The notes: generated by a model from the sequence alone, not told the origin. Positions 1,446-41,070 are shown, counted from the first letter of the stretch. The stretch: 64,000 nucleotides of DNA from an uncultured Acidobacteriota bacterium (GCA_963764025.1 CAVXRK010000009.1:600881-664880); one strand, 5' to 3'. Numbers and translations are program-made.

Positions 1446-1453
1446 CGAGAGCG

Positions 1454-1864
1454 TCAGGCCCGCGCGACCTTCGCTCCCGCCTCCCGCTGGATGAACTCCA
1501 CCAGGGTCTGCGTGGGCGTGCCGGGCAGGAAGATCTCGCGGATGCCCATCGCCTTCAGGGGCGCGATGTCCTTCGCCGGGATGATGCCGCCCGCGAGAAC
1601 CAGGATGTCCTCGCCGCCCTTCTCCTTGAGCAGCTTGAGGATCTCGGGGAAGAGGACGTTGTGCGCGCCCGAGAGGATCGAGAGTCCGACGACGTCCACG
1701 TCCTCCTGGACGGCGGCGGCAACGACCTGCTCGGGCGTCTGGCGCAGGCCCGAGTAGATGACCTCCATGCCGGCGTCCCGCAGCGCGCGCGCAATCACCT
1801 TGGCGCCGCGGTCATGCCCGTCGAGACCGGGCTTGGCGATCAGGACGCGGATCGGTCGGGACAT
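1454..1864 (-). CDS. Methylmalonyl-CoA mutase-family B12-binding (small) subunit. It is the cobalamin-binding domain of a split mutase.
   Basis: 136 aa: [40 protein letters not shown]...[12 protein letters not shown], which contains the B12-binding DxHxxG signature. The TGA at 1454-1456 lies 8 nt upstream of the carboxyltransferase start. Confidence 0.85.
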
Positions 1865-1881
1865 GCCGGCCTGCGAGTGTA

Positions 1882-2604
1882 TCAGTCGACGAGGGCCACC
1901 GGGTCACCGACGCGCAGCCGGGTCCCGGTGAGCGCCCGGGCGCTGACGCCGATCATGCCGCCCCGCGCGCGCAGGATCGCCGAGAGAAGCCCCGGCGATC
2001 GCTCCGGCGTCTCGGCGTCGAGCATCGGGACGATCGCGCGCTCGCATTGCGAAACGATCTCGAGCAGCGCGTCCCCCACCCAGACCTGACGGCCGATCCA
2101 GCGGTCCTCCTCGAACGGGCGCGACTCGGGCAGGTCGAGCAGGAGATTGGCGCGCATCCGCATCGGCTCGATCGGGCCGCCGTACTGCTTCTCGATGAAC
2201 CGGACCGTCGCGACCGACAGGACGTGGAGCGGCGCCGGATCGCTCGCCGAGTCGGTCCGCGGGCGAAGGCTCATGGCTTTACCCCGCCGCCGCGCGATGT
2301 CCTCGATCCAGGCCGAGTCGACGAGCGGCACCTCGGTGCCGCCCGGCATCTTCACGCGGATCCAGGCCGAGAGGTCCGGTCCGCGGACCAGGGCGTCCAG
2401 GTACCGCGCCCGGTAGCGCAGCAGGACGGGAGCTTCCCGGGAGCTGACGAGGGCCCGGTCCTCCTCGTCGTAGAGGTCGTAGAGCCGGTCGCCCGCCAGC
2501 GTCGAGGCTTCGACCAGACACTCGTCCGGCTGCTCCCCGCCGAGCGACCGCACGGGGAAACGCCGCAGCCCGGCGAGCTGTCCGACGACTTCCGCAAGTT
2601 CCAT
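1882..2604 (-). CDS. MOSC domain-containing protein (YcbX-like molybdenum cofactor sulfurase C-terminal domain family).
   Basis: 240-aa ORF. The MOSC beta-barrel plus MOSC_N-like sequence is recognisable. Confidence 0.65.
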
Positions 2605-2619
2605 TGGGGAGGCGCCAAT

Positions 2620-3762
2620 CTAATGCACGGGGCCGGATTCGACAACCCGCAGAATCCGATCGTCCCCCGGCCGAGGCCGCCCCCGTCCGTCCCGGTTGCT
2701 GGTCGCGACGTACATCGCGCCGTCCGGCCCGAAGATGACGTCCCGGAGGCGCCCGTACGTCTGGAGAAAGAGCTCCTCCGTCTCGACGACCTTCCGGGGG
2801 TCCCTGGGATCGAAGCGCACCCGGATGAGCCGTTCGCCCCGAAGCGTCGCGAAGAAGAAGTCGCCGGCGAACGACTGCATTGCGGCTCCCCGCGCGAACG
2901 AGGCGCCCGACGGGGCGACGGCCGGCGTGTACTCGAGCAGTGGCGAGACCATTCCGGCCGCCGATGCGCGGTGATGGACGACCGGCCAACCGTAGTTCTT
3001 GCCGGCCTCCACGAGGTTGACCTCGTCGCCGCCGCCCGGCCCGTCGAAGCCCGACGGCCCGTGCTCGGTCTGGTACTGGAGGCCCGTCGTCGGCTGCCAG
3101 TCGAGACCCTGCGAGTTGCGGTGGCCGTAGGAGTACACGGGCGAACCGGGAAAGGGGTTGTCCGGCGGAATCGAGCCGTCGGGCTCGAGGCGCAGCGTCT
3201 TGCCGCCGAGCGACTTCAGGTCCTGGGCGATGCCCCGGTCCGTGGCGTCCCCGGTCGTGACGTAGAGCATCCCGTCGGGCCCGAACCGCAGCCGGCAGCC
3301 GGCGTGATAGCGGGCCGCGGGGATCCCCTCGAGGATGACCGTGCGGTCCGCGAGCGAATCGCCGGCGTCGCGGAACCGCAGGATCCGGACGGCCGTTCCC
3401 TTCGGCGTATCGTAGGCGCAGGCCAGATAGACGTGCCGCGAGACCGCGTAGTCGGGCGCGAGCGCGATCCCCATCAGGCCGCTCTCCCCCCGGGCCTCCA
3501 CGTCGGCAATGACGGCGAGCGGCTTGCCCTGCAGGACGCCGCCCTCGATCACGCGCACGCGTCCCGGCCGCTCGGTCACGAGCATCCGCGACGGCGACGT
3601 GAAGACCATGGACCACGGGACTTCGAGACCGAGGACGAAGTTTTCGACCCGCAGGTGCCGGCCCGACTTCGTCGCGACGTCCCCGGAGGCCGGAGGCTCG
3701 GCCGGCGTGGCGCAGGCCGACGTCAGCACGGCGAGCACTCCCGCGGCGATCCGCCGGCTCAC
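2620..3762 (-). CDS. PQQ-dependent sugar dehydrogenase (soluble glucose/sorbosone dehydrogenase family), predicted lipoprotein.
   Basis: The C-terminal 380 aa of ORF 2620..4413 match the SGDH beta-propeller (GPDGMLYVTTGD, YSYGHRNSQGLDW, HGPSGFDGPGGGDEVN). The likely start is the GTG at 3762, giving VSRRIAAGVLAVLTSAC (lipobox LTSAC). This GTG overlaps the RdgB stop as GTGA. Confidence 0.75.
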   Translation of the reverse strand: MSRRIAAGVLAVLTSACATPAEPPASGDVATKSGRHLRVENFVLGLEVPWSMVFTSPSRMLVTERPGRVRVIEGGVLQGKPLAVIADVEARGESGLMGIALAPDYAVSRHVYLACAYDTPKGTAVRILRFRDAGDSLADRTVILEGIPAARYHAGCRLRFGPDGMLYVTTGDATDRGIAQDLKSLGGKTLRLEPDGSIPPDNPFPGSPVYSYGHRNSQGLDWQPTTGLQYQTEHGPSGFDGPGGGDEVNLVEAGKNYGWPVVHHRASAAGMVSPLLEYTPAVAPSGASFARGAAMQSFAGDFFFATLRGERLIRVRFDPRDPRKVVETEELFLQTYGRLRDVIFGPDGAMYVATSNRDGRGRPRPGDDRILRVVESGPVH

Positions 3763-4322
3763 GCGCCGCTCCGGCGCGCGAGTGGAAGCTTCTCCGCCAG
3801 CGCGTCCCAGGCGCGGCGCCGGTGCGAGATGCCGTCCTTCTCGTCGCCCCGCATCTCGGCGAACGTGCGGTCGAAACCCTCCGGGACGAAGAGAACGTCC
3901 CAGCCGAAGCCGTTCGAGCCCCGCGGCTCGGCCGCGATCGCGCCGCGCGCCGTGCCGCGCGCGGTCACGACCTCGGCCCCGTCGCAGTATGCGATCGCGC
4001 ACACGGCGGTCGCCGACCGGTCGGGGAACGCATCGAGCATGCGCGCGAGCGTTGCGATCCCCGCGCTGACCTCGAGCCACTTGACGAGAGCTCCCGGAAA
4101 CCCTCCCCAGGCCCCGACGGCCAGGCCGCTGTCCTCGACGAGGACGGGACGCGAGAGCATGCCGTAGGCGGCCCGCGCCTTGGCTTCGACGATCTCGGAC
4201 GGATCGAGGGCCTGAGGCTCCGGCAGGTCCATGTCCAGCCGCTCGATCGCGAAACCCAGCCGCTCGGCCTCGCGGGCCTTTTCGGCGCGGCTCGTGACGA
4301 AGACGACGGGCAGCGGCTCCAC
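3759..4322 (-). CDS. rdgB: Non-canonical purine NTP pyrophosphatase (RdgB/HAM1 family).
   Basis: 187-aa ORF with the Ham1 fold (FVTSRAEKAREAE...GFGWDVLFVPEG...FAEM). It is nested in a different frame inside the long spurious ORF 2620..4413. Confidence 0.85.
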   Translation of the reverse strand: MEPLPVVFVTSRAEKAREAERLGFAIERLDMDLPEPQALDPSEIVEAKARAAYGMLSRPVLVEDSGLAVGAWGGFPGALVKWLEVSAGIATLARMLDAFPDRSATAVCAIAYCDGAEVVTARGTARGAIAAEPRGSNGFGWDVLFVPEGFDRTFAEMRGDEKDGISHRRRAWDALAEKLPLARRSGA

Positions 4323-4351
4323 GCTCCGATTCTGCCACGCCGAAACAAGGC

Positions 4352-4444
4352 GGGGTCAGGTCTCGATTTTTCAGGTTGGCGGCCACGCTGCGGGCGGAGG
4401 AGTCTGTCGCCACGCGACAGCCGAAAAATCGAGACCTGACCCCC
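4352..4444. repeat. Family A palindromic intergenic element, copy 1. The arms are GGGGTCAGGTCTCGATTTTTC and GAAAAATCGAGACCTGACCCC, which are perfect 21-bp inverted repeats flanking a 50-nt GC-rich loop.
   Basis: Read directly in the sequence. It lies between the rdgB start and the cyclase stop. Related copies occur at 23365-23472 and 36595-36685. Confidence 0.8.
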
Positions 4445-4456
4445 GTTTTGTTTCGG

Positions 4457-6088
4457 CTAGCCGGGGTCGCGCGAGGAGAGGATCTTGTAGAGGGGAACCT
4501 GGGTGGTCAGGCCCTTCAGGGCGAAGAAGCCCAGCTGGGCGACCTCGAACCGGTCGCGGACGGCCTGGTAGGTTTCGGGGCCCACGACGATGTCCCCCGG
4601 CTGCGCGACGAACTCCTCGAGCCGCGCGGCCACGTTCACGGCGTTGCCGAGCACGGTGTAGTCGACGCGCCGCTCCGAACCGATGTCGCCCACGATCGCC
4701 TCGCCCGTGTTGATCGCGATCCGCACCTCGAGGGGAGGATCCCCGCGGCCGGTCCGCTCCCTGTTCCACCCGACCATGCCCTCGCGGATCTTCAGCGCGG
4801 CCGCCACGGCGCGCGCGGCGTGATCGGGCTGGTCGAGCGGGGCCCCGAAAAATGCCATGACGGCGTCCCCGATGAACTTGTCGATCGTTCCTCCGCAGGC
4901 GAAGACGGCGTCCGAGGAGAGCGTGAAGAACTCGGTCAGCAGGCGCGAGAGGACCTCGGCCGGCATTTTCTCCGACCAGGTCGTGAAACCCACGATGTCG
5001 GCGAAGAGAATGGTCACGACCTTCGTCCGCGCGGTCTTCAGATCGCCGGTCGCCTTGGCCTCCGTGATGATCTCCTCGACCACCTGCGGCGAGTGGTACC
5101 GCTCCAGCTTCCCGCGGATCCGCTTCTCCTCGACCACGCGCTCGTGGAGCCGGGCCCGCTCGATCGCGACCGCGGCGAAGTTCGCGAGCGCCGTGATCAG
5201 GTCGAGGTCCTGCTCGGAGAAGCTGCCCGCATGCATCGGGGAGTCGACGTAAATGACGCCGATCACGGTCTCGCCGCGCCACAGCGGAGCGCACATGGCC
5301 GAGCGAATCTGCTGGATCCGGATCGACTCGCCGCTCTCGAAACGCTGGTCGGTCTGGGCGTCGGACGTCAGGATCGCCGCCTTCTTCTTGACGACCATGT
5401 CGACGATCGTGCGCGAATAGGGCGCCGAGCCGTCCGAGGTCATGCGCTTTTTCGACTTGAGGCGCGAGATCGAGAGCTTGAGCGATCCGTCGGCCTCCTC
5501 GAGGAGCAGGAAGCCGCGGTCGACCGGCAGGAACTCGAAGATCAGGTCCATGACCTTGTCCAGGACCGCGGAGAGGTCGTCGGCGGAAATCAGGGCCTTG
5601 GCGACCTGGACCAGGATCTCGAAGACCTTGTTCTTGTAAGCCACGTCGAGGACGACGCGCTTGTGCTCGTCCGTCCCCTCCGGCGGGGCGGCGCCGACCG
5701 CCTTCTCGAGGCCGAAATCCAGGTTGAACTCGGAGATCGGCCGGATCCGCGTGGACGTCGAGTCCACCAGGCGCCCCGGCGGAGGCGGGGCGATCGTCGG
5801 CTCGGGGGCTTCGCGAAAGCGGAGCAGGAAGGTGCCGATCAGGGCCTGATCCCCGTCCTGGACTCCGGCGCTCGGAACGCTCTTCTCGTTGACCTTGACG
5901 CCGTTGGTCGACTGGTTGTCGTAGATGACCCACGCCCCGTTTTCCTTCTTGAGGTAGGCGTGGCGGCGCGAGACCGAGAAGTCGTTCAGGACGATGTCGT
6001 TGTCGTTGGCGCGCCCGATGGAGGCGACGTCCCTGGCGAGGGTGAAGACCTGGGGCCGCCCCTCCGACTCGAACACGACCTGAAGCAT
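4457..6088 (-). CDS. FHA domain, GAF domain and class III adenylate/guanylate cyclase in one signalling protein.
   Basis: The real start is the ATG at 6088 (MLQVVFESEGRPQVFTL..., an FHA domain). A GAF domain follows. The cyclase catalytic domain is recognisable from FADIVGFTTWSE...GDAVMAFFGAP...GEAIVGDIG. The upstream 241 aa of ORF 4457..6811 are R/S/P-rich noise. Confidence 0.85.
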   Translation of the reverse strand: MLQVVFESEGRPQVFTLARDVASIGRANDNDIVLNDFSVSRRHAYLKKENGAWVIYDNQSTNGVKVNEKSVPSAGVQDGDQALIGTFLLRFREAPEPTIAPPPPGRLVDSTSTRIRPISEFNLDFGLEKAVGAAPPEGTDEHKRVVLDVAYKNKVFEILVQVAKALISADDLSAVLDKVMDLIFEFLPVDRGFLLLEEADGSLKLSISRLKSKKRMTSDGSAPYSRTIVDMVVKKKAAILTSDAQTDQRFESGESIRIQQIRSAMCAPLWRGETVIGVIYVDSPMHAGSFSEQDLDLITALANFAAVAIERARLHERVVEEKRIRGKLERYHSPQVVEEIITEAKATGDLKTARTKVVTILFADIVGFTTWSEKMPAEVLSRLLTEFFTLSSDAVFACGGTIDKFIGDAVMAFFGAPLDQPDHAARAVAAALKIREGMVGWNRERTGRGDPPLEVRIAINTGEAIVGDIGSERRVDYTVLGNAVNVAARLEEFVAQPGDIVVGPETYQAVRDRFEVAQLGFFALKGLTTQVPLYKILSSRDPG

Positions 6089-6125
6089 GGAGTGCCCGAA
6101 ATTATATGCGCGTCGCGCGCAGAGC

Positions 6126-7238
6126 TCACTCGGCCCGCAGGACGAACCGGATTCGCACGGTTTTCCGGGTGGCGACCGGGCCCCCGGCCGTGCGGGCCGG
6201 CCGGTAAACCCACTGGTGCACCGCATCCGCTGCCGCCTGGGACAGGCCCAGCGGAAGCCCTCGAACGACCTCCACGTTGGTGACTTTTCCCTTGGCGTCG
6301 ATGGCGACTTCGAGCTCGACTGTCCCGTCGATGCCGGCCCGGCGCGCCAGGTCCGGGTACACCGGTTCGACGCGCTTGAGCACGACCGGCCCCTCCGCGA
6401 GGCCCGGCGCCGCGGGTTCGGCCGGCGGGGCCGGGGGCGCCTCTCGCCCCGCCGTCGGCTCGTCCGGCTCGGGCGCCAGGTCCTCGTCCGGCGGAGGCTC
6501 CTCCTCGAGGTCCAGGATCGTGAGGTTCTTGAGCGCCTTGACCGCGGCCGGGGTGATCGCGGGCTCCCTCGGGTCGGGCGGGATGAGATCGACGGCGGCC
6601 GAGCTGACGAACGCCAACCCCCAGGTCTTGTCCTTGAAGGCGAAGTAGGAATGGTCGACGGAGTGGATCGCGATGACGGTGCCCTTGGCGAGGCGGCCGC
6701 CGCGCGCGGCCAGCGGATAGGGCGCGAGGGCCACGTCCGCCGGCTCGCCGACGACGCCGTAGACCGGGGCGAAGGCGAGCAACGTTTTCTCCCGGCGCTG
6801 GCGGGCCTCACGGTCGGAGTCGCGCTCGATCGAGTCCGCGGGCACGAATCCCCGGCCCTTTCGGTCCGCCTCGATCTCGGCCCACGGCCCGCGGCCGCCG
6901 AACACCGAGACCTTCGTTCCGGCGGACAGCGTCTCGATCACTTCGCCGTCGGCCGCGGGCTGCCGGCGCATCGCGGTGCCGTCGAGCGTCACGTAGGCCG
7001 GCGTCCCCGACGCGTCGTCCGACGCCGCTCCCCCGCGGGGATGAAGGAGGAAGTCGACCGACAGGAGTACCGCGAGGATGATTCCCCCAAACGCCAGGAA
7101 CGGCCAGGCCTTGCCGAAGGAGCCGCGGGGCTCGGGCTCCGGCGCGGAAGCATCCGCCGCCGCCTTCTCTTTCTCCGGGTCCGGGACTTCGAGGTCCGGC
7201 GCGTCGCCGGAAACGAAGGGGACCTCCTGGTCCGTCAT
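6126..7238 (-). CDS. TonB-family energy transducer with an N-terminal transmembrane helix, two SH3b-like domains, a proline-rich linker and a TonB C-terminal domain.
   Basis: The real start is MTDQEVPF..., about 335 aa into ORF 6126..8240, and it overlaps the arcC stop as ATGA. The C-terminus reads VLKRVEPVYPDLARRAGIDGTVELEVAIDAKGKVTNVEVVRG, a TonB_C domain. Confidence 0.7.
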   Translation of the reverse strand: MTDQEVPFVSGDAPDLEVPDPEKEKAAADASAPEPEPRGSFGKAWPFLAFGGIILAVLLSVDFLLHPRGGAASDDASGTPAYVTLDGTAMRRQPAADGEVIETLSAGTKVSVFGGRGPWAEIEADRKGRGFVPADSIERDSDREARQRREKTLLAFAPVYGVVGEPADVALAPYPLAARGGRLAKGTVIAIHSVDHSYFAFKDKTWGLAFVSSAAVDLIPPDPREPAITPAAVKALKNLTILDLEEEPPPDEDLAPEPDEPTAGREAPPAPPAEPAAPGLAEGPVVLKRVEPVYPDLARRAGIDGTVELEVAIDAKGKVTNVEVVRGLPLGLSQAAADAVHQWVYRPARTAGGPVATRKTVRIRFVLRAE

Positions 7239-15802: not shown

Positions 15803-16762
15803 GTGAAGGACTGCGTCGACGTCATGGCGCGCGCCTTCGCCGCCCTGGCGCGCGGGGAGGCCGAGATGCCGGTCCGGCAGATCCACTGGCTCCCGGGCAA
15901 GACCGGCGCCCTCGGCCTCATGCCCGCCCACCTCACGGGGCTCGCGGCCGTGGGCGTGAAGGCCGTGACGTTCTTTCCCCGGAACGAAGGCACCGACATC
16001 GACTCCCACCAGGGTGCGGTGCTGCTCTTCGAAGCCGGGCGCGGGCGGCTCCTGGCGATGATCGACGCCACGTCGATCACGGCCGTACGCACGGCCGCGG
16101 TCAGCGGGCTCGCCACGCGCCTGCTCGCGAAAGAAGATGCCGGAGATCTCGCGATCGTCGGGTCCGGGGTGCAAGCCCGCACCCACCTCGAGGCAATGCG
16201 CGCCGTGCGAACCATCCGCCGGGTCCGGGTCGCGAGCAAAACTCTGGCCCGCGCGAAGAGCTTCGCCGAACGCGAGGGCAAGCGCCACGCGATTGCGATC
16301 ACCCCCTGCGCCTCCGTGCAGGAAGCGGTCACGGGCGCCGACATCGTCTGCACCGTGACCTCTTCGCGCGAGCCGGTGGTGCGCGGGGAGTGGCTCCAGG
16401 ACGGTGCGCACGTCAACGCGGTCGGCTCGAGCGTCGCGTCCGCCCGGGAGGTCGACACCGCCGCCGTCGTACGCTCCCGCCTCTTCGTCGACCACCGCGC
16501 CTCCGCGCTCCAGGAGGCGGGCGACTTCCTGATCCCGCGCGGGGAGGGCGCCGTGACCGACGCCCACATCCGCGGCGAGCTCGGCGAGGTCTTGAACGGC
16601 GCCGTCCCGGGCCGCACGTCGCCCTCCGACCTCACGCTCTTCAAGTCCGTCGGCCTCGCCATCGAGGATGTCGCCGCGGCGCAGCACATCTACTCGAAGG
16701 CGCGCGGCTCCGGCTTCGGCCAGTTCGTCGAGTTCGGTGGGAGCCGCCGCGACGCCGATTGA
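15803..16762 (+). CDS. Ornithine cyclodeaminase/mu-crystallin family protein. The N-terminus probably extends upstream; see findings.
   Basis: 319 aa with an OCD Rossmann fold (DLAIVGSGVQARTHLEAM). The in-frame upstream codons 15752-15802 encode VIEVLIVNQNEVPRLLP, which matches OCD N-termini but contains no ATG, GTG or TTG. Confidence 0.8.
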   Translation: MKDCVDVMARAFAALARGEAEMPVRQIHWLPGKTGALGLMPAHLTGLAAVGVKAVTFFPRNEGTDIDSHQGAVLLFEAGRGRLLAMIDATSITAVRTAAVSGLATRLLAKEDAGDLAIVGSGVQARTHLEAMRAVRTIRRVRVASKTLARAKSFAEREGKRHAIAITPCASVQEAVTGADIVCTVTSSREPVVRGEWLQDGAHVNAVGSSVASAREVDTAAVVRSRLFVDHRASALQEAGDFLIPRGEGAVTDAHIRGELGEVLNGAVPGRTSPSDLTLFKSVGLAIEDVAAAQHIYSKARGSGFGQFVEFGGSRRDAD

Positions 16763-17708
16763 GCCCGTCGGCCTCGACGCGATCCGCGAAGCCCGAGCCC
16801 GGATCGCCGGGACGGCAGTCCGGACGCCGCTTCTGCCGATCGCGCTCGAGTCGGGCCGGGAAGTCTGGCTGAAACTCGAGTGTCTCCAGCCGATCGGCTC
16901 CTTCAAGCTGCGCGGCGCCGCCAATGCGATGGCCCTCGCCCGGCCCGAGACCCTCGCCCGCGGCGTGTGGACCGCGAGCGCCGGGAACATGGCGCAGGGC
17001 GTGGCCTGGTGCGCGAGAAGGGCCGGCGTCCCCTGCACGGTCATCGTGCCCGACCACGCGCCGCAGGCGAAGATCGCCGCGATCGAGCGGCTCGGGGGCC
17101 GCGTCGTCAAGGTGCCCTTCGAGCGCTGGTGGCAGGTCTTCCTCGATCACGCGTACCCGGGAATGGAGGGACTCCTGATCCATCCCTTCGCGGACCGGGG
17201 CGTCATCGCCGGCAACGGCACGATCGGCCTCGAGATTCTCGACGAGCTTCCGGACGTCGACTCCGTCCTCGTTCCCTACGGCGGGGGCGGACTGTCCTGC
17301 GGCATCGCCTCCGCGATCCGGGCCCTTCGTCCGGAGGCGAAGGTCCATGCCTGCGAGGTCGAGACGGCGGCGCCGTTCGCCGCGGCTCTCGCCGCCGGAC
17401 GACCCACCGTCATCGAGTACACCCCGAGCTTCGTCGACGGGATCGGCGGACGGGGCGTGCTCGCCGAAATGTGGCCCCTCGCTTCGAGCCTCCTCGCGGG
17501 GTCGCTCGTGGTCTCACTCTCGGAAATCGCCGCCGCGATCCGGCTCCTCGCCGCGCGGGCGCGTGTCGTGGCGGAAGGAGCCGCCGGGGCTTCGGTCGCC
17601 GCCGCGGCGTCCCCGCGCGCGCCGGAAGGCAGGCTCGTCTGCGTCGTCTCCGGCGGCAACATCGACGCCGCCGTGCTCGCCTCGATCCTTTCGGGCGCGA
17701 CGCCCTAG
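16737..17708 (+). CDS. PLP-dependent threonine/serine dehydratase-like enzyme (fold type II, EutB-like).
   Basis: SFKLRGA lysine motif, GNMAQGVAW, GGGGL. The likely GTG start at 16737 overlaps the OCD 3' end. ORF 16668..17708 has an R/S-rich leader. Confidence 0.8.
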   Translation: MGAAATPIEPVGLDAIREARARIAGTAVRTPLLPIALESGREVWLKLECLQPIGSFKLRGAANAMALARPETLARGVWTASAGNMAQGVAWCARRAGVPCTVIVPDHAPQAKIAAIERLGGRVVKVPFERWWQVFLDHAYPGMEGLLIHPFADRGVIAGNGTIGLEILDELPDVDSVLVPYGGGGLSCGIASAIRALRPEAKVHACEVETAAPFAAALAAGRPTVIEYTPSFVDGIGGRGVLAEMWPLASSLLAGSLVVSLSEIAAAIRLLAARARVVAEGAAGASVAAAASPRAPEGRLVCVVSGGNIDAAVLASILSGATP

Positions 17709-17756
17709 GTTTCGTTTCTCAAGACGTTGTTCACCGGCGATCCCCTAACAAGAGAA

Positions 17757-17881
17757 CCCTCTCCCCCGAAAGGGGGAGAGGGCAGGGTGAGGGGGTTGGG
17801 ACCAACTGATCAGATGGATCGCTGCGGGCCGATCGAGCCTGGGGAGCCCTCACCCCAACCCTCTCCCGCCGGGAGAGGGGG
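17757..17881. repeat. Family B palindromic element, copy 1 (~125 bp). The left end is CCCTCTCCCCCGAAAGGGGGAGAGGGCAGGGTGAGGGGG and the right end is CCCTCACCCCAACCCTCTCCCGCCGGGAGAGGGGG.
   Basis: Read directly. It is intergenic between the dehydratase and pagL-like genes. A second copy is at 32266-32389. The spurious ORF 17727..17936 translates through it. Confidence 0.8.
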
Positions 17882-17940
17882 AAGGCCGCCCGGCCCGATC
17901 GAGGCCGTGAACAACGCGTTGAGAATCCACACTTAGGGCG

Positions 17941-18498
17941 TCAGCGGAACCGCCAGCCGCCGAGAAAGGCGAAGGAATTCAGGCCCCAGTTGGGGTCCAC
18001 CGTCCCGGCGTTGGACGTGTGCTGGAAGCGGACCTCGAACGTCCAGCCGGAGGTCTCCGTGACCTGACGGCGGATTCCCGCCGCCCCCTCGATCCGGAAG
18101 TTGAACCGGCGGTTGATCTCGGGGATCTTCTCCACGAGGTCCGTCCAGCCGAGTCCGAACCCGAGCGCGGCATAAGGCAGCCAGGGGCCGTGGAGGAGCG
18201 TGACGCGGAGCCCTGCGGGAAGAACTCCCACGAAATAGGCGTCGGGCGAGACATACCGCTCGAAGGTCGCCGAGGCCAGCCACTCGAGCCGCGCCGAAAG
18301 CCGAAACCCGACCGAGGGCGAAAGGACGACCTGGTGCTCTTCGGTGTCGCCGGGGCCGAGGTTCGCCGGGATCCCGTACCCCGCCGCGATGCCCCACTCC
18401 GGCGGACGCCCTGCGGCGATCGGCCTCTCGGCGCGGACGGCGGGCGCCGAGAGCAGGAAGAGCCCGAGCAGTCCCGCGGAGGCCGGACCGGCCCTCAA
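17941..18498 (-). CDS. PagL-like lipid A 3-O-deacylase / acyloxyacyl hydrolase outer-membrane beta-barrel.
   Basis: The likely TTG start at 18498 gives the signal peptide (M)RAGPASAGLLGLFLLSAPAVRA. The C-terminal FQHTSNAG matches the PagL His/Ser catalytic motif. It directly abuts the fpg stop. Confidence 0.6.
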   Translation of the reverse strand: MRAGPASAGLLGLFLLSAPAVRAERPIAAGRPPEWGIAAGYGIPANLGPGDTEEHQVVLSPSVGFRLSARLEWLASATFERYVSPDAYFVGVLPAGLRVTLLHGPWLPYAALGFGLGWTDLVEKIPEINRRFNFRIEGAAGIRRQVTETSGWTFEVRFQHTSNAGTVDPNWGLNSFAFLGGWRFR

Positions 18499-19400
18499 CC
18501 GACGGGCCTCATGCGGTCTTCGAGCTCCTCCAGCGTGCGCGGCCAGTCGCCACGCAAGAGTCGCGAGAGCGCCCGGTCCGCGAGGAGCTTCCCTCCGGTC
18601 TGGCAGGTGGCGCAGTAATTGGCTTCGTTCTCGGCGTAGACGATCCGCTGCACCGGCGAACCGCAGACCGGGCACGGCTTGCCGTAGCGGCCGTGCACCG
18701 ACATCCCCTCGCGAAACGCCGTGACCTTCTCCGGGAATGTCCTCGCCGCCTCCGAGGCCAGTCGCTCGACCCATTCGCCCAGCACGGCGCGGGTCGCCCC
18801 GTACAGCCGCTCGATCTCCTCGTCCGACATCCTCTGCGTCAGCTTCGCCGGCGAGAGCCGGGCGCGATGGAGGATCTCGTCGGAATACGCGTTGCCGATG
18901 CCCGAGAAGAGCCGCGGATCCGTGAGCGCGCGCTTCAACGTGTGGTTCTCGCGGACGAGAGCTGCGCGGAAGCGGGACACGTCGGCGTCGAGGACCTCGA
19001 TTCCCCCGCGGTCGAGCTCCGCGAGATTACCCTCCCCCTCGACGAGATGGAGCGACGCGCGCTTCCTGGTGCTGGCCTCCGAGAGAACGAGCGACCCGTC
19101 CGGAAAGTCGAAGGAGGCGAGCGCCCCGCGACCACCGACCTTCGCCGGCCGCTTCCTCCAGTGGAGCCGGCCGGCGACCATCAGGTGAAGAACGAGAAAG
19201 AGCCCGCCCTCGAGAACGAAGACGATGCGCTTGCCGATCCGGCGCAGGCCCACGACCGACCGACCCTCGGCCGCCGAGAGAGGCGGAGCGACCGAACGCA
19301 GAAGGAAAGGACTCCCGAGCCGCACCGATTCGAGCCGCCTTCCGACGACGCGCGGCTCGAGCGCCGCCAGATATCCGAGGATGTCGGGAAGCTCCGGCAT
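18495..19400 (-). CDS. mutM: Formamidopyrimidine-DNA glycosylase (Fpg/Nei family).
   Basis: N-terminal MPELPD with catalytic Pro2 and Glu3, a helix-two-turn-helix, and a C-terminal zinc finger CPVCGSPV...CATCQ. Confidence 0.85.
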   Translation of the reverse strand: MPELPDILGYLAALEPRVVGRRLESVRLGSPFLLRSVAPPLSAAEGRSVVGLRRIGKRIVFVLEGGLFLVLHLMVAGRLHWRKRPAKVGGRGALASFDFPDGSLVLSEASTRKRASLHLVEGEGNLAELDRGGIEVLDADVSRFRAALVRENHTLKRALTDPRLFSGIGNAYSDEILHRARLSPAKLTQRMSDEEIERLYGATRAVLGEWVERLASEAARTFPEKVTAFREGMSVHGRYGKPCPVCGSPVQRIVYAENEANYCATCQTGGKLLADRALSRLLRGDWPRTLEELEDRMRPVG

Positions 19401-23365: not shown

Positions 23366-23472
23366 GGGTCAGGTCTTCCTTTTTTCGAAGGCCCCGGGCA
23401 GCTGAGACCCGAGCTCCGGACCGGAGGGGGCCTGAAAAAAGAAGACCTGACCCCTTACGAGACCTGACCCCC
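23365..23472. repeat. Family A palindromic element, copy 2, with a duplicated right terminus. The arms are GGGGTCAGGTCTTCCTTTTTTC and GAAAAAAGAAGACCTGACCCC, followed by TTACGA and a second GACCTGACCCCC.
   Basis: Read directly. The left end begins at the G of the deacetylase TAG stop. The right end runs into the CTA (the TAG on the minus strand) of the VWA gene stop. Confidence 0.8.
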
Positions 23473-24551
23473 TACGAGGCCGAGTCGTCGTACTCCTGGC
23501 GGTACAGGAGGACCCACGGCGCAGCGCCGCGCATCTTGTCGATCCGGATCCGGTGGGGCCCGGGCTTGAGCGAGGGCTTGGCGAACGTCAGGACGTAGTG
23601 GCCCTTGACGGCCTCGCGCACGACGCCCATCGCCCACTCCGGGAACGTCTCCGTCCGCATGTAGAAGCCGCCGGTCTCGAAGGAGAGCTGCTTCAGGCCG
23701 GCGCCGAGCTGGTGCGCGCCCGAGCTGATGTCCAGCGTGAAGACCGGAGCCTGCGCGGACGCAAGGGCCATCTGTGCCGTCTCGAGATCCTGCGTCGACA
23801 CGAAATGCCCCATGCCTCCGTTGGACGCCGTTTCGGACAACGCGTTCCAGCGGCCCACGGCGTATCCGAAGAAGAGGATCGCCTTCGACCCCGGCAGCGG
23901 CCGCAGCGCCCGGCCGATCGCCGTGAGGCCCTTTTCCATCGAGGTCGCCGCACGCTCGTCCTCATGCGACAGGTGGGCGCCGATCGAGAGCGTGGGCGGG
24001 TTCTCGGAACGCTTCGTCTCTTCCTTGCGCGGCGCCGACTCGATCGCCTTCCGGATCACGGCCCGGTCCGACGTGAAGTCCTGGGAGAGCCACAGCCGGG
24101 AGCCGAAGACGAGAAGCGCGACCTCGTCGGACGGCCCGAGCGTGTCGAGGAAATTGAGGGCCTGCCGCTTCATCCGCATCAGGCCCTCGTCCTTCTGGCC
24201 CTCGATGTGGGACTGAAAGACCATCACGAAGAGGCGGCCCGCCGGCGGGACGGGAGCCCCGTCGTCGGCCCCGGCGGCGGGCGCGTCGGTGCGGACGAGG
24301 GTCGCGCTCCGGCTGGGCAAGGCGGCGGAGAGGGACCCTTCCCACTCCAGGGACTCGATCGAAACGGGGTTGTCGTCGACGAAGAGCTGAAAGTCTTCCT
24401 TCTTGAGGTCGGGCACGACGCGACCCTGCTTGTCGGTCACGTGCAGCGTGATCTCGACCCGCGAGACCGTGACCTGCTCCTGGACCGGCTCCTGCCCGCG
24501 CAGGCCGGCCGCCGCGAGCCCGATCAGCGCGGCGGCGAGACGGCGCTTCAC
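23472..24551 (-). CDS. Secreted von Willebrand factor type A (VWA) domain protein.
   Basis: The GTG start at 24551 overlaps the ddl stop as GTGA. Signal peptide VKRRLAAALIGLAAAGL. The VWA fold is present (LFVMVFQSH..., a MIDAS-like DxSxS context). The upstream 139 aa of ORF 23472..24968 are R/G-rich noise. Confidence 0.7.
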   Translation of the reverse strand: MKRRLAAALIGLAAAGLRGQEPVQEQVTVSRVEITLHVTDKQGRVVPDLKKEDFQLFVDDNPVSIESLEWEGSLSAALPSRSATLVRTDAPAAGADDGAPVPPAGRLFVMVFQSHIEGQKDEGLMRMKRQALNFLDTLGPSDEVALLVFGSRLWLSQDFTSDRAVIRKAIESAPRKEETKRSENPPTLSIGAHLSHEDERAATSMEKGLTAIGRALRPLPGSKAILFFGYAVGRWNALSETASNGGMGHFVSTQDLETAQMALASAQAPVFTLDISSGAHQLGAGLKQLSFETGGFYMRTETFPEWAMGVVREAVKGHYVLTFAKPSLKPGPHRIRIDKMRGAAPWVLLYRQEYDDSAS

Positions 24552-25627
24552 GACAGCTCCGCCGGCGGCGCGGTCCGCAGCCGCGCGCGGCGGTCGCGCC
24601 GCTCGAACGCCAGCCGGATGAGCTCGTCGAGAAGAGCCGGCAGCGACAGGCCGCTCGCCTCCCACAGTTTCGGATACATCGACATCGCCGTGAAGCCCGG
24701 AAGCGTGTTGACCTCGTTGACGAGCAGCCTCCCGCCGGCGCGCTCGAGGAAGAAGTCCACCCGCGCCATCCCCGAGAGCCGGCAGGCGCGGAACACCCGG
24801 ATCGCCATCGCCTTCGCCGCCTCCGCGACCGCCGCCGTCACGGGCGCCGGCACCAGCAGCTTCGCCTTGTCGTCGCGGTACTTGTCGTCGTAGTCGTAGA
24901 ACTCGCGCCCGGGCACGATCTCGCCCGGCACCGTCGCCCGGGGAGAGTCGTTGCCGAGGACGGCGCACTCGAGCTCGCGCGCGTCGATCCCCTCCTCGAC
25001 CAGGGCCCGCTCGTCGTAGGCGAGGGCCGCCTCGACCGCCGCCCCGAGGTCCTCCCAGCGCTTGACCTTCGCGACGCCGACCGACGAACCGCCGTTGCAG
25101 GGCTTGACGAAGACCGGAAGCCCCACTCCGGCCCGCTCGAGCTCTTCTCTGGCGCCCGACGCGTCGGCCGCCGCATCCGCGACCGCCGCGCGGGGCGTCG
25201 GGATCCCGGCGTCCCGCATGAGCGCCTTGAAGACCGACTTGTCCATCCCCACGGCGGAGCCGGTCACGCCGGCGCCCACGTACGGGACGCCGAGCGTCTC
25301 GAGAAAGCCCTGCAGCACGCCGTCCTCGCCGCTCGTTCCGTGGATGATCGGGAAGACGACGTCGACGCGGCCCGGGGCGATCTCGGAGGGAACGAGCGCG
25401 CCCGTGCCCTGGTCGCCGCGGCGGAACCGCTCGGGGACGGGGCCGGCCGCGAGCAGCCGGCCCGACTCGGCGGCCGGCAGGAACCGGCCGTCCTCCCCCA
25501 CGGCGACGGGCACGACTTCGTAACGGGCCGGGTCGAGGGCGCCGGCGATCGTGCGGGCCGAGATCCGCGAGACCTCGCGTTCGACGGACCGGCCTCCGAA
25601 GAGCACGGCGACCCGGGTCCGGCTCAC
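24548..25627 (-). CDS. ddl: D-alanine--D-alanine ligase.
   Basis: The GTG start overlaps the serA stop as GTGA. Reads RVAVLFGGRSVEREVS...IIHGTSGEDGVLQG...EVNTLPGFT (ATP-grasp fold). Confidence 0.9.
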   Translation of the reverse strand: MSRTRVAVLFGGRSVEREVSRISARTIAGALDPARYEVVPVAVGEDGRFLPAAESGRLLAAGPVPERFRRGDQGTGALVPSEIAPGRVDVVFPIIHGTSGEDGVLQGFLETLGVPYVGAGVTGSAVGMDKSVFKALMRDAGIPTPRAAVADAAADASGAREELERAGVGLPVFVKPCNGGSSVGVAKVKRWEDLGAAVEAALAYDERALVEEGIDARELECAVLGNDSPRATVPGEIVPGREFYDYDDKYRDDKAKLLVPAPVTAAVAEAAKAMAIRVFRACRLSGMARVDFFLERAGGRLLVNEVNTLPGFTAMSMYPKLWEASGLSLPALLDELIRLAFERRDRRARLRTAPPAELS

Positions 25628-27202
25628 CAGGTCACCAACCGGACCTCCTCGACCGCCGGCAGGGCGCGGAGGCGGTCGAGAACCGCGGCGGGCGGGGCCG
25701 AGTCGACCGCGATGACGGCCGCGGCGCGCGAGCCGTCGCCTCGGGCGAGCGAGAAGTGGGCGATGTTGACACCGGCTTCGCCGAGGACGGTGCCGACCGC
25801 GCCGACGACGCCCGGAACGTCGTGGTTGCGGATGAAGACCACGGTCCCCTCCGGGTGGAACTCGAGCGGAAGCCCGTCGACCTCGACGACGCGGGCGTCG
25901 CGCCCGATGAAGAGTGTGGCGTCGGCGCTGCCTTTGGACCCCGCCCCCGTGAGCGTGACGCGGATCGAGCGGGCGTAGGCGCCGGGCTCCTCGTGGCGCG
26001 TGTCGGAGACGGCGAGCCCCCGGTCGGACGCCATGTAGAGCGCGTTGACGTAATTGACGACGTCCGGCGTCTGGGCCTCGAGCGCTCCCTTGACCGCGGC
26101 GACGGCGACCGGCCGCACCATGTCCTCGGGCAGGCCCCAGGTCTCGACCGCCAGGCGCGTCAGGCGGCCGCCCGAGAGGGCCGAGAGGAAATGGGCGGTC
26201 CGCTCGGCCAGGCGCATCCAGCCGGCCGCGCCGCCCGAGTCCTTGGGGCCGCGAAACGGCAGGTTCACCGCCGGAACGTACGCCGCGCCGGCAAGGGCCT
26301 CGAGCAGGGCCTCGACGGTCTGGATCGAGACGCGCTCCTGGGCCTCGACGGTCGAGGCGCCGAGGTGCGGCGTCGCGACGACGTTCGGCGAGCTTCGGCA
26401 GGGGGTCGTCCGGCGCGGGGGGCTCGGGATCGAAAACGTCCAGGGCCGCCCCGGCGAGCTTCCCGCTCTTGAGCGCCTCGGTCAGGGCGACGCGGTCGAC
26501 GAGGCTTCCCCGCGCGACGTTGACGAGGACGGCCGAGGGCTTCATGAGGGCGAGCTCCGCCGGCCCGAGCAGCGGCTTTCCCTTCTCCGTTGCGGTCGAG
26601 TGGAGCGTGACGACGTCCGATTGCCGGAGGAGCTCTTCGAGAGGCACGAGCGGCACGCCCATCTCCTGGGCCTTTTCGACCGGGAGGAACGGGTCGTGGC
26701 CGAGGAGCTTCGCCTCGAAGGCCCGGCAGCGCGACGCGACGCGGGAGCCGACCTGGCCGAGGCCCACGATGCCGACGGTCTTGCCCGCGAGCTCGGAGCC
26801 GACGAACTTCGACTTCTCCCAGCGGCCCTGCGCCATCGAGGCGGCCGCCTCCGGCACGCGCCGCAGGAGCGCGAGGAGCACCGCGAACGTGTGCTCGACG
26901 GCCGAGACCACGTTGCCCGTCGGCGAATTGAGGACCATGACGCCGCGCGCGGAGGCCGCGGGCACGTCGACGTTGTCGACCCCGACGCCGGCCCGTCCGA
27001 CGACGGTGAGCTTCGGCGCCGCGGCGAAAAGGGCCGCGTCGACCTTCGTCGCGCTGCGGACGAGCAGCGCGTCGGCGTCCTTCAGGGCCGCGAGCAGCTC
27101 CTCGCGCGAGGCCCCGGCGATGTCGACGACCTCGTGCCCGGCCTTGCGCAGGAGCTCGAGCCCGGCACTCGAGACCTTTTCGGCGACGATGACGCGGCTC
27201 AA
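25624..27202 (-). CDS. serA: D-3-phosphoglycerate dehydrogenase (type I, with ASB and ACT domains), frameshifted in this assembly.
   Basis: The N-terminal 270 aa are in the frame of ORF 24548..27202, with a TTG start at 27202. The C-terminal ~215 aa are in ORF 25624..26268. A single extra base near 26390 separates DDPLPKL from PNVVATPHLGASTVEAQ. Confidence 0.85.
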
Positions 27203-31229: not shown

Positions 31230-32252
31230 ATGGCGATCTCCGACTCCCTCGGCCGCCCGCTGCGGAACCTCCGCCTGTCGGTGACCGATCGCTGCAACCT
31301 CCGCTGCGCTTACTGCATGCCCGAGCCGAACTACACCTGGTTGCCGCGCCAGGACCTGCTGCACTTCGAGGAGATCGGCCGGCTCGTCGACGTCTTCACG
31401 GGCCTGGGAGTCGACAAGGTACGGCTGACGGGCGGCGAGCCGCTCGTCCGGCGGGACCTGCCGGAGCTCGTCCGGATCCTGGCCGGGAAGAGCGCGCTGA
31501 CCGACATTGCCATGACGACGAACGGCGTCCTCCTCGCCGACCAGGCGGCGGCGCTCCGGAAGGCCGGCCTCCACCGCGTCACCGTCAGCCTCGACACGCT
31601 CGACGCCGAGCGCTTCCGCCGGCTGACCCGCTTCGACGACCTTCCTCGGGTCCTCGCCGGCATCGACGCGGCCGCCGCGGCCGGGTTCGGCTCCCTCAAA
31701 ATCGACTCGGTCGTCATGCGGGGCGTCAACGACGACGAGATCGCGGCCCTGCTCGAGCGCGGGCGCGCGTGGGGCGCCGAGGTCCGCTTCATCGAGTACA
31801 TGGACGTCGGCGGCGCGACACGGTGGTCGCGGGAGCGCGTCGTCTCGCGAGCCGAGATGCTGGAAACCCTCGCAGCGCGCTACGGCCCGATCGCGCCGAT
31901 CGCCGGGCAGGGCTCGGCGCCGGCCGAGCGCTTCCGCCTGCCCGACGGCCTCGTCTTCGGCATCATCGCTTCGACGACCGCTCCGTTCTGCCGCGCCTGC
32001 GACCGCAGCCGCCTGACGGCCGACGGCCACTGGTTTCTGTGCCTGTACGCGGCGCGCGGGACCGATCTGCGCGGGCCGCTCCGGGCCGGCGCGACCGACG
32101 CGGAGATCCGCGAGCTCCTCTCCTCGACGTGGCGCCGCCGCGAGGACCGGGGCGCGGAGGAACGTCTCCGTGTCGCCGAGCGCTCGCCGCTGCTGCCTCG
32201 GGTCGAGCTCGTCCGCGATCCGCATCTGGAGATGCACACGCGCGGGGGCTGA
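31230..32252 (+). CDS. moaA: GTP 3',8-cyclase (radical SAM).
   Basis: CNLRCAYC cluster plus a C-terminal [18 protein letters not shown] second cluster. Confidence 0.9.
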
Positions 32253-32265
32253 GTCCCGGGACAAT

Positions 32266-32389
32266 CCTCTCCCCCGAGGGGAGAGGGCAGGGTGAGGAGT
32301 TCGGATGAGGTGACTAGCCGAGAACCTTCCGGCCGATATCGTGTCTTGGAGCGCCCCTCACCCCGACCCTCTCCCGTCGGGAGAGGGGG
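32266..32389. repeat. Family B palindromic element, copy 2. The left end is CCTCTCCCCCGAGGGGAGAGGGCAGGGTGAGG and the right end is CCCCTCACCCCGACCCTCTCCCGTCGGGAGAGGGGG.
   Basis: Read directly. It starts 14 nt after the moaA stop and lies between moaA and the convergent PhzF-family gene. Confidence 0.8.
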
Positions 32390-32438
32390 AATACATCGGG
32401 GAACTGCCGCGCGGCGAACGACCAGCCCGAAACTGAGA

Positions 32439-33338
32439 CTAGGGAATCTCCAGCCACCCCTCGCCCACGAGCACGCTCGTCCCGCCGATCCACGCCCCGA
32501 CCACCGTTCCGGCCTCCTTCCGCGCCCGCGCCGCGAGAACGCTCGGCCGGCCCATCTCGACGCCCTGCGCGATACGCCAGCCGAAGTCCCCGTCGTCCCG
32601 CGGATCGCAGTGACCGAGCAGCGCCGCCAGGGCGCAGTTGGCGCTGCCGGTCGCGGGATCCTCGGGCACGCCGTCGAGCGGCGCGAACATGCGCGCGCGG
32701 ATGTCGTACTCGTCGGCACTTCGGACGTAAAGGTGGATGTCCGGCACGATGCCCTCCGCGGCGAGGGCCTCGACGCCGGGCATGTGGGTCCGGGCTCGCT
32801 CGAGCGCCGAGCGGTCCGCGAGTTCTGCGACGAGGAACGGGAGGCCGACCGAAGCGACCTGCGGCGCGTGCGTCCGCGTGACGATGTCGTCCGGAGACAG
32901 CGACACGGCCGAGGCGAGCGCGCCCGGACCGACCGTCGTGCCGAGCGAGAGGCGTTCGGGCGCCGCAAGCTCGCACGCGATCGCGCCGTCGGACTGTCTC
33001 TCGATCCGGATCGGAACGAGGCCGGCCTTTTCCTCGAATGTCACCTCGAGCGGGCGGTCGAGCGGCCCGAGCTCGCCCGCGCGCGCCAGGACGAAGGCCG
33101 TCCCGACGTTGGGATGGCCGGCGAACGGCACCTCGGTGGTCGGCGTGAAGATCCGGACCCGCCGCGTCCTGGCCTGCTCCGGCGGGAGAACGAAGGAGCT
33201 CTCGGAAAAATTGAACTCGCGGGCGACCTGCTGCATCTGCCGGTCCGTCAGGCCGCGGGCGTCGGGCAGCACGGCGAGGGGATTGCCGCCGAACAGCCGG
33301 TCCGTGAAGACGTCGCAGAGAAAGTAGCGGTAGCGCAT
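32439..33338 (-). CDS. PhzF-family isomerase (phenazine biosynthesis PhzF-like, DAP-epimerase fold).
   Basis: 299 aa: [23 protein letters not shown]..., typical of PhzF/YHI9. Confidence 0.8.
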
Positions 33339-36594: not shown

Positions 36595-36685
36595 GGGGTC
36601 AGGTCTTCACTTTTTCCAATTTCCGACGGGCCGGGCTGGGGGGGTTTGCGGCCGCCGAAATCCGAAAAATGAAGACCTGACCCCC
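36595..36685. repeat. Family A palindromic element, copy 3. The arms are GGGGTCAGGTCTTCACTTTTTCC and GAAAAATGAAGACCTGACCCCC.
   Basis: Read directly. The right terminus ends in CCCCCTA, where CTA is the TAG stop of the mutase gene on the minus strand. It lies between the mutase 3' end and the ribBA 5' end. Confidence 0.8.
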
Positions 36686-40962: not shown

Positions 40963-41027
40963 GGACGAGCCTCCGTCATCTGCAAGTTTCTCAACGAGTC
41001 GTTCGCGGCGGCCATCGGTCCCTGGCG

Positions 41028-41070
41028 GCCTCCCCTCCTCTCCCGGCGGGAGACGGTCGGGGGGAGGGGC
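41028..41070. repeat. Solo hairpin related to the family B terminus (CCTCTCCCGGCGGGAGA...GGGGGGAGGGG).
   Basis: Read directly. It lies between the radical SAM gene 3' end and the aldolase 5' end. Confidence 0.5.

Follow-up and report, generated by a model that had tools for sequence, protein, structure and literature searches.

Two palindromic elements in an uncultured Acidobacteriota bacterium are probably head-to-head pairs of the BoxC repeat spread as non-coding repeat DNA

A small palindromic element occurs in a 64,000-nt stretch of DNA from an uncultured Acidobacteriota bacterium (GCA_963764025.1, CAVXRK010000009.1:600881-664880), the whole of which is here called the window. Two full copies lie at 17757-17881 (copy 1) and 32266-32389 (copy 2), and a degenerate solo module at 41036-41068. 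These elements are probably head-to-head pairs of BoxC-type modules, that is, non-coding and non-autonomous repeat DNA of the REP/BIME/REPIN kind (REP, repetitive extragenic palindromic) or of the kind of the miniature inverted-repeat transposable elements (MITEs), in which the pair and its centre are copied together to new places. The preliminary description of this DNA had called them 'Family B'; by their sequence, however, both full copies are pairs of the BoxC repeat known from Escherichia coli and no new family, as their arms correspond to the BoxC/PIT/TM_ECO motif (PMC4666352). The 33-39-nt module is the conserved core of the element.

Reading of the sequence confirmed the coordinates of both full copies. 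Each contains two inverted modules of about 35 nt, laid out as a C-block, a loop, a G-block, 2-3 nt and a second G-block:

17757-17795, plus strand: left BoxC-type module of copy 1 (11-nt C-block, GAAA loop, 11-nt G-block, CA linker, 11-nt mirror G-block)
17796-17846, no strand: centre of copy 1, 51 nt, conserved in the alignment to copy 2 only at GGCCGAT
17847-17881, minus strand: right BoxC module of copy 1, CCCTCTCCC-GGC-GGGAGAGGG-TTG-GGGTGAGGG on the minus strand
32266-32299, plus strand: left BoxC-type module of copy 2, CCTCTCCCC-CGA-GGGGAGAGG-GCA-GGGTGAGGAG
32354-32389, minus strand: right BoxC module of copy 2, CCCTCTCCC-GAC-GGGAGAGGG-TCG-GGGTGAGGG on the minus strand

The left arm of copy 1 reads CCCTCTCCCCC (17757-67)-GAAA-GGGGGAGAGGG (17772-82)-CA-GGGTGAGGGGG (17785-95), and its two G-blocks also make a G-quadruplex motif. 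On the plus strand the right arm reads CCCTCACCCC (17847-56)-AA-CCCTCTCCC (17859-67)-GCC-GGGAGAGGG (17871-79)-GG. In each copy one arm is an inverted repeat of the other, and every arm contains a perfect hairpin of its own (9-11 bp). The centres (about 50 nt) are unrelated between the two copies save for the common GGCCGAT, as the preliminary description had already noticed. With the solo module, which departs from the TM_ECO pattern by one mismatch per block, the window holds five modules in 64 kb of a genome of 70% G+C. The hairpin pattern has four matches in the window against 0.21 expected, a count reached by none of 100 shuffles. A profile hidden Markov model (HMM) built from 128 independent metagenomic arms recovered the four arms (E = 1e-9 to 3e-6) and the solo (~41031-41068; E = 0.056), and found no further match in the 64-kb window. 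The earlier picture of a small non-coding palindromic repeat with hairpinned terminal inverted repeats is thereby upheld, as is its count of one half copy beside two full ones.

The BoxC/PIT/TM_ECO repeats themselves have been in the literature since 1992; we know of no established function or way of spreading for them. The TM_ECO motif of E. coli is 5'-CCCTCNCCC-N3-6-GGGNGAGGG-N3-GGGNGAGGG-3' (Holder et al. 2015, PMC4666352), which its authors take to be the same as the BoxC repeat described in the 1990s and as the potential intrastrand triplex (PIT) elements of Hoyne and Maher (PMC4666352). The BoxC sequence was also rediscovered as the HPG1/HPG2 G-quadruplex-hairpin-duplex switch motif (bioRxiv 10.1101/032615). 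Read on the minus strand, both right arms of the window match the TM_ECO pattern exactly, and the left arms depart from it only in the 2-nt CA linker (the second loop) and in their longer stems. The mirror rule, by which the third block mirrors the G-block, is kept in the left arm of copy 1 (GGGGGAGAGGG/GGGTGAGGGGG) and in both right arms, with one violation in the left arm of copy 2; the two G-blocks supply four G-tracts, as in TM_ECO.

The same module is common in E. coli. A blastn search with a 141-nt query placed it in 4357 of the 5426 complete genomes of this species (median, six places per genome), and the E. coli copies are 84-89% identical over 41-44 nt; one of them, GCCCCCTCACCCTAACCCTCTCCCTCAGGGAGAGGGG, was read directly downstream of lldD (lldD-trmL). 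Matches were also obtained in 463 plasmid or chromid records, including those of Klebsiella, Azospirillum, Sinorhizobium, Rhizobium and Methylobacterium, and the copy of S. meliloti was read. Azospirillum and Enterobacter asburiae LF7a are rich in the module, the latter having 143 copies. All 23 TM_ECO copies of E. coli are intergenic, K-12 has five head-to-head pairs that each join one type-A and one type-B arm, and the loci show raised variability and instability, with gain and loss (PMC4666352). The arms of the window also fall into two types (CA versus TTG/TCG linkers). We read directly the head-to-head pair at hrpB-mrcB of K-12, which has unlike arms, and found in Azospirillum replicons pairs with a 2-nt-linker left arm, a TTA right arm and a centre of ~39 nt.

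The window elements thus share with BoxC a three-block design of nearly the same sequence (the TCG linker of one right arm is that of E. coli copies 12 and 20), the intergenic position, the occurrence as solos or as head-to-head pairs of unlike arms, and gain and loss among relatives. They differ in having left arms with 2-nt CA linkers and 10-11-bp stems instead of 3-nt linkers and 9-10-bp stems, a centre of ~50 nt instead of 16-30 nt, modules set in lineage-specific outer arms of ~45 nt, and an acidobacterial host (Thermoanaerobaculia) where the TM_ECO census is proteobacterial. A variant of the block, CCCTCGCCC (T6 to G, giving a G.A mismatch in the hairpin), recurs in the soil metagenome loci L226, L230, L244, L248, L249 and L277 and is the commonest E. 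coli type ('type A mm'); neither the hairpin rule nor the triplex rule accounts for it.

The placement of the pairs in the window's own lineage points to recent gain. We compared the 21-kb ddl neighbourhoods of relatives, which are syntenic with the window at ~14.5-35.6 kb. Both full copies sit between convergent genes, PALP/PagL-like for copy 1 and MoaA/PhzF for copy 2:

16668-17708, plus strand: pyridoxal phosphate (PLP)-dependent enzyme (PALP; Pfam E = 1.9e-66), its stop codon abutting the copy 1 insert
17941-18774, minus strand: PagL-like lipid A deacylase (Pfam E = 1.3e-14), convergent on copy 1
31230-32252, plus strand: MoaA (radical SAM and Mob_synth_C; Pfam), flanking copy 2
32439-33338, minus strand: PhzF family (Pfam), convergent on copy 2

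The solo module has minus-strand genes on both sides, one of the beta-eliminating-lyase family and one for a radical-SAM/SPASM protein, and is 3' of the latter. These Pfam calls agree with the earlier placement of all copies in intergenic DNA at convergent or 3' positions.

In the closest relative (L124), whose flanking genes are 87-89% identical at the nucleotide level, both sites are empty according to blastn and alignment. At the copy 1 site its stop codons are 4 nt apart (TAG-GACG-TCA), compared with 232 nt between stops in the window, and at the copy 2 site they are 6 nt apart (TGA-GCCCGG-CTA), compared with 186 nt. The segments that L124 lacks, together with their flanking direct repeats, are:

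17710-17933, no strand: copy 1 segment, 224 nt, with direct TAGG at 17706-17709 and 17934-17937
32254-32432, no strand: copy 2 segment, 179 nt, with direct CTGAG at 32249-32253 and 32433-32437

The pair is also absent from L125, L126, L128, L129, L133 and L158 at whichever of the two sites were compared. The search for empty sites in related genomes that the preliminary description had recommended was therefore successful and, because the orthologous spacers of the relatives are without pairs, the parsimonious reading of these alignments is that both pairs were gained in the lineage of the window.

The MoaA/PhzF spacer also received another insert in a relative. At L129:3215-3425 it holds a different element of ~135 bp with a REP-like GTAGGGGCGG...CCGCCCCTAC palindrome and direct AGCGT flanks, and the same site is empty in L133. 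Small elements have landed in this convergent spacer more than once.

Three alleles exist at hrpB-mrcB of E. coli (loci L325/L326/L327), where the site is filled (K-12), empty (MS6198, 102 bp shorter) or collapsed (N5D43). The collapsed allele is a single hairpin, CCCTCTCCC-TGT-GGGAGAGGGG, produced by deletion between the arms. The three alleles agree with the instability reported for these loci (PMC4666352) and make up a natural experimental series.

Paired elements in metagenomes indicate what is copied. A scan for the paired pattern (left arm with CA linker, centre of 40-70 nt, right arm) matched at least 120 contigs, from which 74 distinct elements could be parsed. In L214, L227, L239 and L270 the whole element of ~135 nt is conserved, including its centre, and the flanks are unrelated; hence the pair was copied as a unit, and no regular target duplication was found in this family of four. 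The elements end in (G)AA or TTY before CCCTCTCCC and in RGAA after GGGAGAGGG. The two arms of one element co-evolve, as both have the same loop length in 48 of the 74 elements, compared with 16% expected between elements. Hairpin pairing is kept through variable loop inserts: loops of at least 6 nt, of 57 distinct sequences, add 2.6 Watson-Crick pairs to the stem, compared with 0.40 after shuffling. The edges of the centre also match each other's complement better within an element (5.15 of 12 positions) than between elements (4.09; ~5-6 standard errors). As called with a crude GC3 (third-codon-position G+C) gene caller, convergent genes flank 14, tandem genes 21 and divergent genes 4 of the 39 elements that have a gene call to either side, with a stop codon typically 1-100 nt off; the paired elements are enriched between convergent genes, tens of nucleotides past the stop codons.

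In the source genome the BoxC module is part of a longer unit. An outer arm of ~45 nt (TTCTCAACGNGTYGTTC...) goes with three of the five modules, namely those on both sides of copy 1 and the solo:

17716-17734, plus strand: outer-arm motif TTCTCAAGACGTTGTTCAC, left of copy 1 (three matches in the window against 0.04 expected)
17907-17925, minus strand: outer-arm motif TTCTCAACGCGTTGTTCAC, right of copy 1 (inverted-repeat, motif and shuffle comparisons)
32390-32438, minus strand: diverged outer arm of copy 2, containing GTCGTTCGC, with marginal similarity to the solo outer arm (8 of 500 shuffles reach the score)
40988-41070, plus strand: half copy, with the outer-arm motif at 40988-41006, a spacer and the degenerate BoxC module at 41036-41068, homologous to the right half of copy 1

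Copy 1 is a nested palindrome, with a 35-nt inverted repeat of 83% identity (17700-17734 versus 17907-17941) outside its BoxC arms, and the whole spacer has a fold z of -5.3 as DNA. The core of the outer-arm motif, TTCTCAA(G/C)(A/G)CGTTGTTCAC, is found once more, for a total of three, at 40988-41006, which is 30 nt upstream of the solo. Over the 44 nt outside the module, the right arm of copy 1 and the solo are ~80% identical as aligned, a score reached by none of 500 shuffles, and the same holds (0 of 500) when the left outer arm of copy 1 is compared with its right outer arm or with that of the solo. The repeat of the source genome is then a 'long arm' of ~85 nt, in which an outer motif, a spacer and a BoxC module are joined. 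Two such long arms make up copy 1 (~17716-17925) and one makes up the solo (40988-41070), so the ~125 bp assigned earlier to the element underestimates it; in copy 2 the outer parts are lost or diverged.

No outer motif was found beside a module in 328 other loci (~3 Mb) or in IMG/VR, and the motif is lineage-specific. Across the metagenomic elements the complementarity of the outer flanks is not significant (5.7 versus 5.25 of 20), and therefore the element usually ends at its arms, the long arms being peculiar to this lineage. Just outside the right arm of copy 1 (17880-17892), GGGGGAAGGCCGC resembles the flanks of an E. coli copy (GGGGAAAAGGCCGC, L001:1529-1546) and of an Azospirillum copy (GGGGAAGAGGGCCGC, L002:1606-1620), and these similar flanks suggest that the conserved module may reach a few bases beyond its stated end.

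The host lies outside the range described for TM_ECO, as the census of 262 genomes lists proteobacterial ones only (PMC4666352). The D-Ala-D-Ala ligase of the window has its nearest matches, at 93% and 92% identity, in two soil metagenome-assembled genomes (MAGs) of uncultured Acidobacteriota, followed by relatives that carry the label Thermoanaerobaculia; the two closest MAGs are CAWDUQ01 (MFD05442.bin.1.363) and CAVZNW01 (MFD06435.bin.3.333). Related Thermoanaerobaculia loci totalling 623 kb contain 10 modules, all without a head-to-head partner, and 605 kb from other phyla contain one, compared with five in the 64-kb window; the BoxC family is established in the class Thermoanaerobaculia, but sparse. 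The exact paired pattern is present in at least 120 metagenome contigs and the module in at least 120 IMG/VR contigs. The IMG/VR matches are not to be read as phage-borne, since only two records of cultured phage genomes, both of Campylobacter phage, contain the module. One IMG/VR contig (L061, 3300047168_000249) carries at 1200-6224 a genuine terminase-portal-capsid-connector-tail-completion operon with four BoxC modules in its intergenic spacers.

One related locus has the module inside a gene. At L161:10462-10497 (Thermoanaerobaculia MAG CAVUIX010000029.1) a perfect module, CCCTCTCCCCCCGGGAGAGGGCCGGGGTGAGGG, lies in frame within ddl and encodes ...TLSPRERAGVRAQ... in a variable linker that reads AVADAAADASGAREEL in the window. 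This resembles the insertion of Rickettsia palindromic elements (RPE) in genes; unlike those, it is a single case, and the copies of the window are all intergenic.

Several known repeat systems can be compared with the BoxC pairs. With REP, BIME and REPIN sequences the pairs have in common short G+C-rich hairpin modules in intergenic DNA, mostly 3' of genes, two inverted module types and a doublet long hairpin as the replicating unit; REP-type repeats have no target-site duplication, and no consistent one was detected in 72 metagenomic BoxC elements. They differ in that GTAG/CTAC adjoins none of the five window modules and in that REPs lack the third G-block of BoxC; moreover, REPs are mobilised by RAYT transposases, whereas we know of no RAYT for BoxC and found none among the ~50 window open reading frames (ORFs) tested.

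With Correia/NEMIS elements and MITEs they share a non-coding palindrome of 100-220 bp with terminal inverted repeats, the multi-copy state, filled and empty sites among relatives and the possibility of co-transcription with neighbours. Of the usual marks of a MITE, the terminal inverted repeats and the small non-coding size are present, and so are the empty sites (both in L124); the direct repeats differ in length (TAGG, 4 nt, at copy 1 and CTGAG, 5 nt, at copy 2). The Correia/NEMIS elements of Neisseria have a 26-nt terminal repeat, a TA duplication and a site for integration host factor (IHF). The terminal repeats of the window are unrelated to these, with no TA duplication, IHF site or promoter boxes, and the centres are not conserved between the window copies. 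The earlier label 'Correia-like' accordingly holds as an analogy, but not as an assignment, given the different terminal repeat, the missing TA duplication and the lack of a consistent target duplication in 72 related elements. To our knowledge, there is no parent insertion sequence with ends like those of BoxC pairs.

If the pairs are repeat DNA of this kind, they would spread at the DNA level and in trans, through an enzyme or a replication or repair process that reads the hairpin. The pairs show no regular target duplication, their hairpin is conserved and their arms are of two unlike types; in this they resemble REP/REPIN-RAYT or IS200/IS605 more than DDE systems, so that a hairpin-dependent single-strand transposition of the REP/RAYT or IS200/IS605 style would be a closer likeness than cut-and-paste by a DDE enzyme. 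Copies would last where harm is small, in promoter-free 3' spacers. After insertion, both convergent transcripts would meet a very stable G+C hairpin, which could stabilise 3' ends or hamper read-through as a side effect.

A number of points weigh against this reading. We know of no BoxC-mobilising enzyme in any organism, and transposase and integrase families gave no match in the ~50 window ORFs tested; the window ORFs with family matches are ordinary metabolic and cell-envelope genes. The near-identity across phyla could reflect strong selection on structure or protein binding instead of mobility. The relatives are just 87-89% identical, and repeated loss in several lineages is formally possible. 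The inserts (224 and 179 nt) exceed the common 125-nt core, and the window copies, whose centres differ and whose outer arms do so in part, may have had a history of several steps. Among the 72 metagenomic elements no consistent target duplication was detected (3-5 nt, all offsets), the sole signal being a recurring terminal GAA, and the TAGG and CTGAG direct repeats could be microhomology instead of transposase footprints. In addition, the scan pattern fixes four of the six blocks, which the metagenomic set cannot test, and the gene contexts depend on the crude caller mentioned above.

A different explanation of the same hairpins, which we regard as unlikely, is that the G+C hairpins in both 3' untranslated regions are kept for their function as an RNA 3'-end element, acting as terminator, read-through insulator or exonuclease block in the way that REP hairpins act. 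The predicted folds are indeed stable (-81.3 and -77.5 kcal/mol, z = -3.4 and -4.2), hairpin pairing is preserved despite variable loops, and the related elements lie 1-100 nt past stops and are enriched in convergent spacers; that 3' bias, however, is explained as well by tolerance of insertions away from promoters. The left arm of copy 1 followed by TTCTCTTGTT is terminator-like for the transcript from the PagL side, and on the minus strand this arm alone combines a G+C hairpin with the U-tract of an intrinsic terminator. The remaining three arms lack a U-tract, no part of copy 2 scores as a terminator-like site, and the closest relatives manage without the element, their stops being 4-6 nt apart. 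The recurrent variant CCCTCGCCC further brings a G.A mismatch, and no wobble pair, into the stem, and the E. coli family had neither terminator nor promoter activity in published tests (as summarised in PMC4666352).

It seems improbable that the elements are a non-B-DNA device. On that view the single strand would fold into a purine-motif intrastrand triplex (C-block : G-block * mirror G-block) or into a G-quadruplex (G3-N3-G3-N2-3-G3-N3-G3); such a structure would hold up replication or trigger recombination, and selection would favour the element for the local variation that it generates. The arms count as keeping the mirror rule, and in the left arm of copy 1, with its stem lengthened to 11 nt, the third block is 11 nt long as well (GGGGGAGAGGG/GGGTGAGGGGG); the third block of the left arm of copy 2, GGGTGAGGAG, nevertheless breaks the rule. 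An isolated E. coli strand forms a stable triplex in vitro and the E. coli loci are more variable, but no triplex signal was obtained in double-stranded DNA or by in vivo dimethyl sulphate (DMS) footprinting (PMC4666352). A G-quadruplex/hairpin switch has been proposed (bioRxiv 10.1101/032615), and the pair of E. coli N5D43 did collapse to one hairpin. Selection for variability, on the other hand, explains a selfish-like repeat only weakly, and apart from the gain itself the window presents no instability.

Very little probability attaches to a small RNA (sRNA) gene or to a coding repeat for a 'PSPPKGGEGRVRG' peptide. The predicted folding is strong, a 69-aa ORF spans copy 1 and one relative has a module in frame inside ddl. 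Rfam, on the other hand, gave no match at gathering score in the window, and a permissive Rfam search of the locus reached at best 23 bits against gathering thresholds of at least 39, with weak microRNA-like matches that are typical of long hairpins. The elements have no promoter-like site, fold alike on both strands, vary in their centres and are missing from close relatives, and the suggestion of a discrete sRNA is not sustained. As for the long-range GGGTGAGGGG/CCCCTCACCCC helix proposed with it, this is just what results when the third blocks of two inverted modules lie opposite each other; the third-block columns are invariant in every copy, fixed as they are by the search pattern, and so provide no covariation evidence for that helix. 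The ORF at 17727-17936 has no Pfam family and its DNA is absent from the relatives compared there, so it was rightly called spurious; besides, the E. coli copies are all intergenic (23 of 23; PMC4666352).

That the element is a local duplication, or a G+C-rich palindrome that arose by chance in this window alone, has practically no probability, for although there are only five modules in 64 kb of a genome of 70% G+C, the observed count was reached in none of the 100 shuffles and the module also occurs in E. coli, in alphaproteobacterial replicons and other plasmids and chromids, in other Thermoanaerobaculia MAGs and in the metagenome and IMG/VR contigs (at least 120 of each).

Two other features of the window were observed. 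A second repeat family, GAAAAA(T/A)GAAGACCTGACCCC(C/T)TAC..., occurs in at least three places (4391-4444, 23434-23480 and 36632-36693). On the minus strand, 24548-27202 is a single ORF of 884 aa with a D-2-hydroxyacid dehydrogenase domain (aa 4-270) and a complete D-Ala-D-Ala ligase (aa 530-862) and no stop between them, which could be a true fusion or two adjacent genes in the same frame.

For the BoxC family, the window adds a host far beyond the Proteobacteria, a lineage-specific long-arm form around the module and clean evidence of recent gain, in which spacers of 4 and 6 nt in L124 correspond to 232 and 186 nt. The metagenomes add that the head-to-head pair and its centre are copied as a unit without regular target duplication. 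For annotation, BoxC elements give spurious 'PSPPKGGEGRVRG'-type ORFs and false matches to hairpin RNAs in high-G+C genomes and should be masked as repeats. A bolder and more doubtful extension of the repeat-DNA reading is that BoxC pairs form an actively mobile family across phyla. The module would then be the recognition site of a putative enzyme that reads the hairpin or triplex and inserts the pair without target duplication into convergent spacers of 4-6 nt, occasionally in frame in genes, and lineages would build longer forms such as the long-arm form of ~210 nt. If this is true, a 30-year-old repeat would become a defined mobile system across Proteobacteria and Acidobacteriota.

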